From the NCBI GenBank assembly GCA_951406725.2, contig OX597814.1, positions 135,346,001-135,410,000 on the forward strand: a DNA stretch of 64,000 bases, written 5' to 3'. Positions 10,842 through 62,830 of the stretch are shown here, in pieces. The translations under genes were made by a program, and so were the position numbers. This DNA is from Octopus vulgaris (lineage: Eukaryota). Every line of letters begins with the position of its first letter. Within the stretch, counting starts at the first letter, position 1. The notes under the pieces were generated by a model. The model worked only from the letters and a program-made list of their open reading frames with translations. It was not told the origin of the DNA and made no database searches.

Positions 10842-11170
10842 ACAGTTATAAATAATGAGAGAAATATAGTGTAATAAAATTTATTTAACCATTGGAAATT
10901 CTTATATATCAACAATTGTTTTACAACTTAATAAAACATGCATGGATAATTTATTTTATTATATTTTATGATAAGTAAATTACTTACATATCTGCATTAA
11001 TGAAAACAACCTTTAAACTAATGCAGATATTAAGCTAGCTCATCAGGTCTGAAGAAATCCATGTTAAAAAATAATTCCTTGACATAAAGTTTCAAGAACA
11101 CAAGGTCAATATTTTAAAAAAGTATAATTTTATGCACTCCTTATAGTTTTCTCTTGTATCATACCATATA
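10842..11170. mobile_element. Decayed PLE pseudo-LTR-like element with hammerhead remnants, next to (TA)n
   Basis: Minus strand: CTGATGAG (11046-11039), long stem II, aaaa-caattg-tt near 10911-10922. Plus strand: CTGAAGA starts at 11049. Confidence 0.45.
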
Positions 11171-12051
11171 TTCTGTATGTTTTGTAGAATGATACATTAA
11201 GGAGCTTTTTTGAGAGTACCACCAGATTAATTGAATCCATACATTGTGACTTAAATTCACACACACATCTTTATACACAAGCACTCCTATTAATGTTTGT
11301 TTTATTATAGTTATATATAAAAAAATAAGCAAATATTTGATTACTAAAACCTTTAAGTAGATAATCATATTTTATTTTGTTAGTTGAAGGTTGACAGTGA
11401 CTTAAAAATTTCAGCTTACTTACCTGCGTCAGACTGTAGAGTATTTCTGGTTTTCCAAGCCTTATTTTGGTTCATTTTGGTTCATTTTGTGGGAGGAGCA
11501 ATGTGATTGCAGAACAGGTGTGCTATAACAATCTATTTTTGTGGCATATGAAAAAAAGTGCCTTTATGAGTCTAATTCAATTGGGTAAGCAGAAACAGTG
11601 AGCTTGTGTGGAGAAAGAAATGGTAAATAAAGAGAAGAAAAGAATGAGATCTACAAACCAATCACTTAACCAACCAACCAACCAACCAACCACTATAGTT
11701 ATAATCTGTCCATCTGTAACATAAGTTTTGGTTTGGTTTGCAATTCTCCCTTTCTCTTTCCCTCCATATATATGTATATATGTATATTTACACAGACTCA
11801 CTATGTACACAGATATACATATATTCTTCTCAGAACTATTGTTAAAGACATAAGAACAAAAATATGAATCTCTGTTCTGTCTGTCTCTCTCCCTCTCCTG
11901 CTCTCTGTCTCTTTGTATAATGATACACATATATACATACACCCAAGTACATATATATAAATATGATAGCTGTATTATCTGATGGTATATGTGTATGTAC
12001 ATATCTATCTGTCTGTCTGTCTGTCTATCAATCACACATAGAAGCTTACAA

Positions 12052-12530
12052 AATGCCCCTACCCCTTACCGATTCCTCAGACATTTCGTCAGAAGACAAA
12101 AGAAGTGAGGAATGGCAAATAGCCAGAAAAGGAAGGAGGACGAGCAGCAAGAAAAGAACCAAACCAAACGCAAATGCAAACAAAGCAGGGAGATACACAA
12201 CTCCTGAAAACTTTTCGAACACCAACACTCACACACACAACACCAACACCAACAGCAACACCTCAAAAACAAACACATACAATGCTCACTGCCATCAACA
12301 CGAAAAATACAGAGTTGATGGAACACATCAACAAAAAAACAAACCTAAAACATGAAGACATAAAAACAAGCAACCACCCATACACAATACCACCAGAACA
12401 CATTAAAATATTGCACATCACACCAACCATGCACCACGCACTAAAATCCATTTACTCCAATGCAGTTGGAATATGCCAGAAGTACACTTCCACACATCCC
12501 AAAAACTTTATAGTAATACAAGGGACATTT
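12052..12530 (+). other. Frameshifted ORF-like, A/C-rich fragment, probably the 5' part of a retroelement ORF
   Basis: MPLPLTDSSDISSEDKRSEEWQIARKGRR... has an acidic then W-x-x-x-x-K/R basic start typical of LINE ORF1 N-termini. It continues in another frame. No splice signals or recognisable domain. Confidence 0.3.
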
Positions 12531-12746
12531 TCCTTGTATATGAATACTATGCAAATATTCTTTTAAAAAACTTTTCATTTAATTTTTCCAAAATTTAATT
12601 GTTTTCCATACTTACAGTTGAAAAAGTCTCAATGATCAAAACTGGTACTGAAATGTTTTTTTATAAAATTATTTTAGCATTTTCCACCTTGATTTTTTTC
12701 CATATATATATATATATATATCAACTTGTGTGTTCCTTTTCAACCT

Positions 12747-12796
<50 letters not shown>

Positions 12797-58811: not shown

Positions 58812-60328
58812 CACTGGCCAAAATAAGTTGAAGACCGATGATGACAGTTCTATTCCTTCATTAATTTATTTTTAACAAGCCTGTATAAAATTATTTTACT
58901 TTTTACAATTTATGTAGAATTTTTTCGCTTTCGAATGATATAGGTATTATATATCTTTCTACAATTTGAATAATTTTAATGTGCAATTAATTCAAATGAT
59001 TAAAAATTATCGGCAAAATAAGTTTATGACTGTACCAACAATATTTTGTTTAAATTGAAAATTTACAGCACAAACGATCAACAAACAAAAATTTATTATT
59101 AGTATCTAGTTCCATAGCCATTATTTTCAATTACAGCCTTACAACAGCGGGACATGGAGTTCAACAAATGAGTACAAAAATCACTTGGAATGTTCTGACA
59201 TATTTCTTCAATAAAATTATATAATTGGGACAAATTTGTTTGTATTTTAGCATGAACTCTTTTAGAAACATAATTCCATAAATTTTCTATTGGATTCAAA
59301 TCCAGGTTCTGTGGAGGCCACTCAATAACCACCATATTGTTGAACTCAAAATATTGCAAGACTTTCCTAGCCTTATGAATGAGGCAATTGTCCTGCTGGA
59401 AAAGAGATCCTAGTGGTGTCTGATTATTTAAATATGGCAGCACATTTTCATTTACTAATTGCAGATAGCCTACACTGTTCAGTCTGCCATCAACCTTAGC
59501 AATTCAACCAACACCTAAGCTGCTGAACACAGCCCACACCATTACCCCCTACTTCCCACTTGCACCATTTTCTTGACACACTTAGAATGGAATTCTTCAG
59601 TTAGACAGCGCCTGACATAAGTCTTTCTGTCTGATCCAAAGATACAGAAGCGGGATTCGTCACTCCAAAGAACTTTTGACCAGTCTTCGGCCATCCATTC
59701 AATATGGCTTCCACCAGTTCATCTCAGAAATTATCGGCTTCTTTTGAGTGATCCGGTCAAACAGTCCAAATTCTTTTAGGTGGCTTCTGACAATTTGTGG
59801 TGTAAAGCTGATGTCAGTTTCATTAGATAATTGCTTTAAATGTCCACAACTGTTAGCATTTGGTTACCTTCAGAGAGCCTATGAATTCGCCAATCCATCT
59901 GTACTGTTGTTTTTCTCAAAGCGCCTGTTCTTTGCCAATCTTTGTACTGGCCAGTGGCTTGAAAAGGCTTCCATGCTTGAACAAAAGCCATTTTGCTGCA
60001 CCCTAATTGCTCACTAATGTTCGTGAAAGACATATTTTGCTGATGAAGCAACACAATGTTTTGGTTTGTTAATTCGCATAGTCTTGGTATGGTCTTAAGC
60101 AAAATAATGTTGGTATGGTCTTAAACTTATTTTGCTGACAATTTTTAATCATTTGAATCATTAAAATTATTCAAATTGTAGAAAGATTTATAACACTTGT
60201 ATCATTTGAAAAAGAAAAAAACTTACATAAACTGTAAAAAGTAAAATAATTTTATACAGTTTTGTTAAAAATAAATTAATGAAGGAATAGAACTGTCATC
60301 ATTGGTCTTAAACTTGTTTTGGCCAGTG
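58812..60328 (-). mobile_element. Full-length Tc1-family transposon (IR/DR type), frameshifted DD34E transposase
   Basis: TA-cactggccaaaa ... ttttggccagtg-TA, about 240-bp TIRs with inner and outer direct repeats; WSKVLWSDESRF and FQQDN...DLNPIENLW with 34 residues between D and E. Confidence 0.93.
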
Positions 60329-62094
60329 TATGTGTGTTTATGTGTGTGCATTTGCTTGTTCTGCTGATGTGGCTTTTTGATTTGAATTTTGCTTTGTCAG
60401 TTTTAATGTCACCAGCTGTGCAGCTAAACATTTTATGCTTGAATAAAAATATTTCCACCCAGTTGATTCTAAGCCTGGAATGTATCCACCCTGTTGATTC
60501 TGAGAATTACTAATCCATTTTTAAACACTCAATCTATCTTAATGTCAAACTTGTTGAAATGATAAATATACAGACAACTGAATAATAGATCAAGGGTTAA
60601 AACACTTTTCAAAGCTTTCTGTTGTGTTTTTAGTCATGGCATTTTACTCAGCTTGCCACAATCTACCTGGCTAAAAATAACTGCCACTCCTGTTTTGCAA
60701 CTGAGAAATATTTATTTCATCTAAATATTTGAATTTGCATAGCCATCTAATCGTTCTAGTCAGAAAACAAAACTCTGTTATTAATAATTAACTAAGGTTT
60801 TCTCATACCAAACAATCCTAGTAGCTGAACAATCTAGACAAGTATTGAAAAAAACCAAGGTCATAGTTTAATTTTTAATCATTTTTATTGTTCATATTAT
60901 ATTATTTCTTTCTACATTACATCATATATTAAATCAGTACTAAACTAACATGTCTGTTTCAAACATTATATTGTATACAATGCACCTGAGCACTGTATAT
61001 AATAAGTTTATTATTATCATACCAAATAAAATTTATAAACAAGCTTGTAACAATATTTCTTCAATGATTTTCAAATAATGTTTTTATAGTACATATTATG
61101 TAAGCATGTTTATATACTGATGAATTCATTAATTATGGACAATTTAATTGAGATTCATATAGCAAACAGTAACAGATAAGATAGCATTCACTTCTATTAA
61201 ATGATAAAAGTTATGAAGTTCTATATTATAAAACAATTAAATATCTACTAATCAACTGAATATGGAGATTTTAGATTAGCTGTTTTGTTGTTGTTTTTTT
61301 GATGGGGGTGGCAGGGAACAGACCTTAGCTTCTAAAGGTGACTTGTCATCATATTACCAAAAATATCAGTGGATAAAATGCATTCAGCGTCATTAGTATC
61401 TTGTATGCTTCCATTGAAAGTAATCTTTGTTATAGATGACATCTTAGAGAATTGTTTCACTGTAGGTAGGTCCTAATGAAATAGACATATAATCAGAGGT
61501 ATCCCAGCTATGACTACCCTGGTATTTTATGTAAAAAAAAATTTTTTTTATTTTTAAATAAGTGACCACAATGTCCAGTTTTCTTAAGACAGTAGGATGT
61601 TATTTAAGAGAGATTTTGTTTCTGTTTTTAGCAGGCTGAGTGGCTGCACTAAGAGCACCCTGGGTCACTAATTATCAGATTATCCTTACGAGGGACACTG
61701 TCCAGTGCTAGTGAAGAGGAACAAATTATTGATATTTTATCTTTTTTTATGGGAAATACAAGCAGAAAGTAGTTTTTGAAAACTTCCTATCAGATTCTTG
61801 CTGATTCAGATTATCACCAGTCTATGAAATCTAGTGGCCGTCTTTGTCTTCCTATTGATTTGGTTAGTTGTATTCCTCAGAAAATAACTACCTACCCATT
61901 CATAAGCTTATGTGGATAGAATATTTTATTCCAACTCTGCTGAGATAGGTTTTAGAAATTGCATTTCTTTCTATTTCATTTGGCATGTTATTATAAGAAT
62001 TGATTAGTAACAACATAAGGTTCTTTTGCTGGAATATGAACCGTATCAGGAACTTATATTCATGTGTATGTATGCTTATTCTTTTATTCTTTTA

Positions 62095-62440
62095 CTTGTT
62101 TAAGTTATTTGATTGCAGCCATGCTGGAGTAATGCCTTTAGTTGAACATATTGACCCCAGGACTTATTTTTTGTTAGCCTAGTACTTATTCTAGTTACAG
62201 GGATGTAAATACACCAACATCGGTTGTCAAGTGATGGTGGGGAGACAAACACAGATGCACAAATATATATACATGTCTATCTATATATATATTGTATATA
62301 TGATGGCTTCTTTCAATTTCCATCTACCAAATCCACTCACAAGGCTTTGGTCAGCCTAAGGCTATAGCAGAAGACACTTGTCCAAGGTATCACACAGTGG
62401 GACTCAACTCAGAACCATGTGGTTGGGAAGCAAGCTTCTC
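62095..62440 (-). mobile_element. tRNA-derived SINE, family A
   Basis: Reverse complement of the family A head, body and tail. Confidence 0.75.
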
Positions 62441-62736
62441 TTTTTTCCCTTATCCTTAATTGCTTTTGTGATCCCTCCTTACTTACCACAACCCATAGCT
62501 TACCATAATAAATTTTCTCCTACAGCCCACTGCAGTCTTACCATAATCTAGTCTAGTCTGAGTCACTGACCTTAGATATCAAATTACACACTTTAAAGAA
62601 CTACATTCTTAACCTAAACTGCCAACATAGTTGCTCATTTTCCCATTCATAACTGGCCTTGACAAACACATCCCTGCTGTGTTCCTGAATATTCTTTTAT
62701 TTTGTAAAAGAATATTCAAGAACACAGCAGGTATAT

Positions 62737-62830
62737 GTCTTCTCATCTGATGATTACAGTCTTTTATAAAGATGTAATGTTCTCATTCATCTATTAAAAG
62801 TTATGAAAGAAACAGCTGTAATGAGATGAC
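62737..62830 (+). ncRNA. Minimal type I hammerhead ribozyme
   Basis: Stem I gtcttctcat / atgagatgac (9 of 10 pairs); CTGATGA at 62747-62753; imperfect long stem II; GAAA at 62809-62812; stem III C-AGCT-G; predicted cleavage after GUA at 62820. Confidence 0.72.

Follow-up and report, generated by a model that had tools for sequence, protein, structure and literature searches.

Hammerhead-Bearing Short Elements of Octopus vulgaris as Probable Truncated and Head-to-Head Copies of Penelope-like Element Termini

The window analyzed here, 64,000 nucleotides of Octopus vulgaris DNA (GenBank assembly GCA_951406725.2, contig OX597814.1, positions 135,346,001–135,410,000), contains ten short loci that carry hammerhead ribozyme motifs, several of them beside inverted repeats. 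The motifs are genuine hammerhead-like sequences, and all ten loci are parts of dispersed families. Judged from sequence, the short elements are truncated copies of the pseudo-long terminal repeat (pLTR) of Penelope-like elements (PLEs), derivatives of an already known kind. The arrangement of their arms makes it probable that each locus is a 5′-truncated copy, or a head-to-head pair of copies, of a PLE pLTR, for which both target strands primed synthesis at two fixed sites on one RNA and the resulting complementary DNAs (cDNAs) were joined by microhomology. The preliminary description of this DNA had recognized PLE derivatives without open reading frames (ORFs), with minimal type I hammerheads, inverted 5′ ends and a microsatellite setting; these points are borne out by the parental frames and by the ends of the arms.

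The element class, its hammerheads, inverted pLTRs, the one-sided tail and pairs of hammerheads on opposite strands are already in print (PMC8557442, PMC3846280, PMC4209133); in Schistosoma, such pairs were seen 100–700 bp apart (PMC4209133). The available text of two papers states the origin of the inverted ends and of the tail as open (PMC8557442, PMC11167929). In the open-access main texts searched, we found no printed count of a pairing rule, of disjoint arms or of a run-off site, and no twin-priming or run-off model for PLEs. The young families described here form a countable record of such events: an inner-site arm paired with a tail arm, arms that are not copies of each other yet carry a common haplotype, and a sharp 5′ site of putative run-off.

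Families and Sampling

The host genome (2.8 Gb) is rich in microsatellites. The ten loci fall into nine families, named A to I, which have no common primary sequence in a self-comparison of the window. A genome search was run with seven of the loci and gave 1348 (A), 456 (B), 693 (C), 1456 (D), 1758 (E), 376 (F) and 458 (H) first-look candidates. An exact 36-mer of family A was counted 1097 times and an exact 34-mer of family D 783 times, with controls at 0. Copies are up to 99–100% alike in A, about 97% in D and about 80–88% in other families. For families I (12.6 kb in the window) and G (16.8 kb), all homologues come from loci that had been retrieved in the searches with the remaining families.

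Arms were counted in position-ordered samples from the two youngest families. The family A sample comprises 96 of the first 100 of the 1097 places (70 loci, 123 arms; one place had no arm above the filter), and the family D sample comprises all of the first 100 of the 783 listed places (77 loci, 121 arms, with one pair being a local duplicate). For ten A arms that start at reference positions 1361–1400, the apparent start is at least in part an alignment break, as 6 of the 10 continue upstream.

Nearly Every Pair Combines an Inner-Site Arm with a Tail Arm

Two fixed positions account for the 3′ ends of the arms. One is an inner site; the other is where a tail ends, about 155 nt further on in A and about 34 nt in D. 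Pairs that combine one inner-site arm with one tail arm account for 48/51 in A and 42/43 in D (90/94 in total), where about 50% would be expected by chance (p < 1e-11 for each family). All sampled pairs are head-to-head. The inverted 5′ copy with a tail at one end, which is a criterion for endonuclease-bearing PLEs, is found in the same 90 of 94 pairs. A tract of (TA)4 or longer ends 116/123 family A arms and 119/121 family D arms, in line with the microsatellite setting given in the preliminary description.

These elements resemble published endonuclease-bearing PLEs in their hammerhead pLTR, 5′ truncation, inverted 5′ copy, one-end tail, junction palindromes and (TA)n targets (PMC3846280, PMC8557442). 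The published tail is 30–40 bp, a length that family D matches and family A exceeds. In the available text of the same papers, the tail is described as "optional" or "often at one end", whereas here the pairing is near-obligate, most copies consist of the pLTR only, and non-nested and disjoint arms could be counted.

Arms Are Often Not Copies of Each Other

The preliminary description had proposed that the hairpins record snap-back priming of a single cDNA. An untrimmed fold-back cDNA can yield a second arm only if that arm is nested in the first, and non-nested arms therefore tell against simple snap-back as the general mechanism. Of the 40 direct pairs in family A, 14 have a tail arm that extends further toward 5′, 8 have equal arms and 18 have a longer inner-site arm; 10 of these 18 non-nested pairs have arms without any common sequence. 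The corresponding numbers for 35 direct D pairs are 9, 15 and 11. In the window, the locus at 10.9 kb is a near-disjoint pair.

The two arms of a locus nevertheless appear to share a source. In family A, the difference between arms is 0.8% for arms of one locus and 3.2% for arms of different loci, and at common variant sites they are concordant 86 times and discordant 6 times (17 expected). The disjoint A arms match known haplotypes, and none of 5000 permutations was as good (n = 10). Because disjoint arms have no shared sequence and yet match in haplotype, conversion of one arm by the other is excluded as the source of this agreement. Microhomology of at least 2 nt is present at 18/24 (A) and 10/18 (D) insertion-free junctions, against a null of 17%. 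At some junctions the template was apparently switched more than once, leaving short segments that are inverted or repeated (L164, L205, L213, L267, window 62710–62738; L numbers label sampled genomic loci).

A fold-back model can be kept if the single cDNA self-primes a hairpin and the endonuclease trims either arm before integration. Matching haplotypes and junction microhomology both fit this model, as do the near-equal 5′ ends of 23/75 direct pairs, and two structures in the window, the 54.7 kb arm of 40 nt and the duplication at 62.7 kb, look like fold-backs. Junction palindromes have been read as self-priming (PMC3846280), and the tail has been ascribed to resolution by the endonuclease (PMC8557442). 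Trimming would have to account for the 18/40 A and 11/35 D pairs in which the other arm is the longer one. The disjoint arms (10/40, plus the 10.9 kb locus) would further require that one and the same inner site arise from a first-strand cut in some copies and from a second-strand stop in others. Two reverse transcriptase (RT) starts that bound the tail have, in addition, been shown in vitro (PMC11167929). We regard trimmed fold-back as unlikely.

The structures might also have arisen after insertion, by palindrome deletion or gene conversion, or as assembly errors in long palindromes. Palindromes are unstable, and complex junctions and local duplicates do occur. None of these processes can yield the rule of one inner site and one tail, 3′ ends that are base-exact at (TA)n, or the haplotype matches of disjoint arms, and we give such an origin hardly any weight.

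5′ Hot Spots and a Putative Transcription Start

Many arms stop at a preferred 5′ position. Of 74 family D arms that reach the site, 45 stop within 13 nt, and only 6 of the remaining 29 end in the next 177 nt; the upstream edge is sharp, with 26 arms at three adjacent positions. In family A, 15/42 arms stop within 16 nt. In family B, 13/25 lie within −9 to +8, in a sample biased by its query. All three sites are initiator (Inr)-like. A TATA-like box lies at −30 in family D (TATAAGAG) and in family B, and family A has a word at +28 that resembles the downstream promoter element (DPE). The hot-spot adenine is at window position 39130 in D and about 93 nt upstream of the core in A. The Drosophila Penelope pLTR carries both Inr and DPE (PMC2377424). 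The pLTR is also the 5′ leader of the parental mRNA, and the position and sharpness of the hot spots suggest that they likely reflect run-off at the transcription start.

A less likely reading is that double priming is correct but that the hot spot marks a place where RT pauses or where RNA is processed, or else a favored microhomology. In A, the arm starts are spread more broadly and coincide with small hairpins (imperfect palindromes), and the first bases of the D site resemble the TA target. The promoter words are short and were read after the fact, with a chance of 7–9% per family for the Inr-like word. Contigs of four presumed RNA runs each cover families A and D and gave no transcript ends. 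An extra cap-derived G at arm 5′ ends was looked for by eye and was not convincing. Ends near the predicted cleavage site are slightly over-represented (8 arms in each case; p = 0.026 and 0.003 before correction), which suggests that some templates may have been cleaved before copying. A pause or processing site does not readily explain the sharp edge in D (26 arms at three positions versus 6 in the 177 nt above), the single arms that join (TA)n directly and begin at the same bases, or the TATA-like box at −30, and no stable stem ends at the D hot spot. Run-off at the transcription start remains our preferred account.

A Proposed Model for Integration

In the proposed mechanism, the parental PLE enzyme would cut both strands of a TA tract, and the two cut 3′ ends would serve as primers on the source RNA, with the inner site used by one and the tail end by the other. 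Both cDNAs would extend toward the 5′ end of the RNA and stop at the cap or before it. Pairing of their 3′ ends by microhomology would follow, and the gaps would be filled in. The template would mostly be uncleaved RNA, with the hammerhead copied as a passenger, and the products would be dead on arrival. Double priming could be carried out by an RT-endonuclease dimer on one RNA molecule, and two RNAs from one master copy would fit equally well. One start site per strand, the single RNA and run-off are our own inferences. The published Anolis system (Poseidon PAc) provides the closest likeness: in vitro, both strands are cut and extended, two RT start sites bound the tail, and uncleaved RNA is used, ribozyme cleavage not being needed (PMC11167929). 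The available text of that study reports no difference between strands in the choice of start site and leaves later steps open, whereas the genomic pairs imply one start per strand. Twin priming of L1 likewise involves two target-strand primers, an inverted truncated product and a join at microhomology. The present pairs differ in that both starts are fixed and in that most arms overlap, an arrangement that requires either displacement of a strand or a second RNA.

We lean, by a modest degree, toward a more general proposal in which PLE integration is obligately asymmetric twin priming. A dimer would use one start site per target strand on the same RNA, and starts in the 5′ pLTR would make both cDNAs run off at the cap, giving large numbers of "strong-stop" palindromes of fixed length that consist of promoter and ribozyme. 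If true, a single step would account for inverted pLTRs, for the tail and for the solitary minimal hammerheads found by the thousand in animal genomes, and the self-priming explanation would be replaced. The genomic record yields exact predictions that the in vitro system already available could address, and the intact family A parents are candidates for that system.

Several observations weigh against double priming on a PLE template. Four of the 94 pairs break the pairing rule. Joining is not always simple, as extra bases are present at 16/40 A and 17/35 D junctions. Haplotype agreement is weak in family D, whose arms differ by 2.0% within and 2.6% between loci, with 14 concordant and 25 discordant variant sites (6 expected). 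The hairpins at 54.7 and 62.7 kb in the window fit the two-arm pattern poorly. A link to a parental ORF was seen for A and D but not for B, C, E, F, H and I, and searches of Pfam and PDB with the family A protein returned no match.

Junctions and the Retrozyme Question

The preliminary description had suggested a retrozyme-like, self-propagating system and had named the sharing of fold-back junctions between loci as its test. Among 40 family A junctions, 37 are distinct. The window junction occurs exactly twice genome-wide, on different haplotypes, and two junctions nearly identical to it carry the tail on the other arm; recurrence is therefore ascribed to microhomology and the 5′ hot spot, not to descent. 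Neither consecutive head-to-tail units nor unit ends shared at the cleavage site or at a common junction were found, and copies span the predicted cleavage site rather than begin there. Head-to-tail arrays are absent from the sampled loci, 70 of family A and 77 of family D, although at one A locus TA sequence separates two arms on the same strand; the window contains no long-period tandem array.

A retrozyme-like non-autonomous family would consist of hairpin-hammerhead RNAs that are cleaved, circularized and re-inserted by PLE enzymes. Most copies are indeed noncoding: 107/123 A arms start within the last ~670 nt and 98/112 D arms start after the stop codon. Cores are well kept in A (63/67), a few junctions recur (3/37), and animal retrozymes come from PLE pLTRs (10.64898/2026.07.22.740005). 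Published animal non-LTR retrozymes are similarly ORF-less, measure 150–300 nt, have a type I hammerhead and originate from PLE pLTRs (PMC7761336, 10.64898/2026.07.22.740005). They form head-to-tail repeats with a hammerhead in consecutive units, whereas the elements described here are head-to-head or single and have unique junctions. The few repeated junctions sit on microhomologies with opposite tail polarity or different haplotypes, and a transcript of a head-to-head pair has one sense hammerhead, its other arm being the complement. The retrozyme reading is largely refuted, and we consider it highly improbable; the insertions are likely one-off. Hairpin-plus-hammerhead matches in animal genomes need not be retrozymes.

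Penelope-like Parents

The short elements were identified as pLTR copies because longer copies run into PLE frames. In family A, longer copies extend upstream into a reading frame, and the full-length loci fetched have open frames of 899–908 codons in 4/4 cases, starting about 45 nt past the tail. The order pLTR-tail-ORF is seen at L277, L281, L286, L295 and others, with a full element at L358. The pLTR forms a partial tandem with hammerhead, as is characteristic of endonuclease-bearing PLEs. The frames contain YRDD and DKT; DKT, RWL and CNLC are present in 4/4 and CPH in 3/4, no CCHH was recognized by eye, and the CxCX5C linker is absent in 4/4. Neighbors of the protein in the Atlas carry RVT_1 and HTH_animal, and BLASTP relates it weakly to the family D protein (E = 1e-5).

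These motifs, including DKT, the RW motif, CxxC and CxH around the endonuclease, and the lack of CCHH, are shared with PLEs of the Hydra clade, as is the (TA)n target (PMC8557442). The CxCX5C linker of that clade is replaced in family A by a long Asn/Ser-rich stretch. Family A thus appears Hydra-like by motifs and is not filed in the Hydra clade since the linker is missing. Intact Hydra-like frames in which the Asn/Ser-rich linker takes the place of the zinc finger proposed to guide (TA)n targeting (L358:1102–3813 and L359–L361) belong to a family that still inserts in (TA)n.

Longer family D copies run into a frame with RT motifs, a zinc-finger linker and, at the C terminus, a GIY-YIG domain that scores above the Pfam cut-off, the combination that defines endonuclease-bearing PLEs. 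The CX4CxxC linker finger and GIY-YIG liken family D to Neptune/Nematis-type PLEs (PMC8557442).

A decayed PLE of family G lies at 16738–19320 (−), with RT and GIY-YIG remnants at 17625–19320 and a U3-A8 hammerhead at its 3′ end (16836–16877). Mobilization of the short elements by this PLE, as had been suggested, finds no support: it is broken by many stops and frameshifts, and its 3′ end, which is of the 16.8 kb type, has no match in the pLTR at 19.6 kb. Family A has its own intact parents. The 19.5–20.1 kb region was considered as the 5′ pLTR of the 17.6–19.3 kb element and was rejected because it does not match that element's 3′ end; the pair is a separate family E insertion.

Elsewhere in the genome, PLE fragments of different families often adjoin or nest in each other or in other retroelements (L127, L009, L024, L041, L136, L236), which fits shared AT-rich targets. 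A subfamily of D, D2 (L204:535–725(−), L123, L194, L205, L362–L373), has an insert of ~197 nt whose position coincides exactly with the predicted cleavage site; 40 scored copies are 98–100% alike, among 116 candidates. The insert bears GT donor-like, branch-like and polypyrimidine-AG words, and no spliced form was present at any sampled locus. The insert may be an intron, a ligation product or the ancestral state.

Hammerhead Motifs in the Window

A strict descriptor of the minimal hammerhead (CTGANGA, GAAA, stems I and II of at least 4 bp, palindromic stem III, and UH) found four sites in the window, with cores at 53047(+), 52989(−), 54618(−) and 62747(+). All four have the minimal type I core boxes, stems I and II and a palindromic stem III. 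In 100 local dinucleotide shuffles, the mean was 0.06 strict sites and the maximum 2, and none reached 4; the motifs are above chance, as the preliminary description required. An earlier, narrower descriptor found one of the four strict sites plus 37977(−). With a relaxed core, the descriptor gave 6 sites, compared with 1.22 in each shuffle, but a number of the variants escaped it even so. Two further descriptor matches, at 37905–37977 (−) and 60206–60278 (+), are absent from the earlier list of loci and may be chance. No hammerhead appears in an Rfam scan of the window among the matches listed (best 150 of 176), and the microRNA matches are microsatellite noise. Predicted monomer folds of six window copies contain stem I or II in some cases and the complete three-way fold in 0/6.

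Of five cores previously described as intact, four pass the strict descriptor. The fifth, 19582–19625, is missed; its core is kept but its stems are eroded, with two G-U pairs in stem II and a stem III palindrome broken relative to family copies. The description of other loci as decayed holds only in part. The motif at 39183–39222 mostly reflects not decay but a family variant, and those at 12.6 and 16.8 kb are also of the U3-A8 type. This variant is already published for PLEs (PMC4209133). In family D arms, the U3-A8 core is found in 84/94 and GCAA in place of GAAA in 74/94, with canonical boxes in 0/94; family A arms retain the two core boxes in 63/67 and 60/67. The published minimal hammerheads of truncated PLEs also have type I cores, a palindromic 15.2–16.2 region and many families per genome (PMC4209133). 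The present ones differ in the long AT-rich loop II of A, B, C and F and, in D, in the family-wide GCAA and a predicted weak stem I. In the family H hammerheads (L344–L357), stems I and II measure 5 bp each and stem III is longer, and these ribozymes may cleave as monomers.

Inverted arms had been reported at five loci, and arms do exist at all of them: 156 bp at 53 kb, ~160 at 39 kb, ~40 at 54.7 kb, ~30 at 62.7 kb and 93 at 19.6/20.1 kb. The last two differ from the original account. The 93-bp arms are separated by 387 bp and so do not form a centered hairpin, and at 62.7 kb the hairpin results from an inverted duplication that lies within a forward copy, ~270 bp from its edge. A head-to-head arrangement is likewise seen at 10.9 kb, where the overlap of the arms, only ~10 nt, leaves no hairpin.

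Individual Loci of the Window

The family A pair consists of a tail-bearing arm at 52696–53032 (−), with a hammerhead at 52906–52998 and the ~155-nt tail running to (TA)n, and an inner-site arm at 53027–53182 (+), with an intact hammerhead at 53038–53130 and its end at (TA)n 53180–53205. Full-length copies continue from the former into the ORF, and the junction has 3 nt of microhomology. In family D, the inner-site arm (38975–39129, −) has a U3-A8 variant hammerhead, and the tail-bearing arm (39128–39331, +) starts at the 5′ hot spot (Inr-like TCAGAT) and has a ~34-nt tail; both end at (TA)n.

The long arm of family B (54286–54745, −) carries a hammerhead at 54520–54625 and a tail, and starts at the 5′ hot spot of the family. 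Its short inverted arm (54746–54786, +; ~40 nt) ends in microsatellite before the inner site and may be a true snap-back or the result of a later deletion. Family C is represented by a forward copy at 62435–63082 (+), with a hammerhead at 62737–62830 and an internal inverted duplication of ~29 nt at 62710–62738. The family E pair combines a tail-type arm (19475–19661, −; hammerhead 19582–19625), which ends at (TG)n, with a long inner-site arm (19662–20141, +), whose hammerhead at 20085–20128 has G12 changed. In family F, an inner-site arm (10843–11119, −; decayed hammerhead at about 10910–11046), which ends at (TA)13, lies head-to-head with a tail-only arm (11123–11257, +). Single arms represent family I (12535–12700, +; decayed U3-A8 hammerhead at 12614–12651, end at (TA)n) and family H (approximately 12800–13175, −; decayed hammerhead near 12985–13030, with a longer stem III in relatives). 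Insertions of this kind may scatter promoter-like and double-strand-RNA-forming sequence through microsatellites.

The window also contains remnants of other elements. An open 3′ part of a non-LTR retrotransposon at 203–1729 (−) has an RT frame (RVT_1) and a PHD-like finger, with microsatellite at its 5′ end. A zf-RVT-like fragment below the Pfam cut-off (23452–23853, −) lies between 165-bp inverted repeats (23176–23340 and 24214–24375), and a DDE_3 transposase fragment (59099–59503, −) lies between 244-bp inverted repeats (58810–59053 and 60095–60330) in a Tc1/mariner-like remnant. A match to U4 small nuclear RNA at 31139–31272 (−; 73.9 bits) has a divergent 3′ part and is probably a pseudogene.

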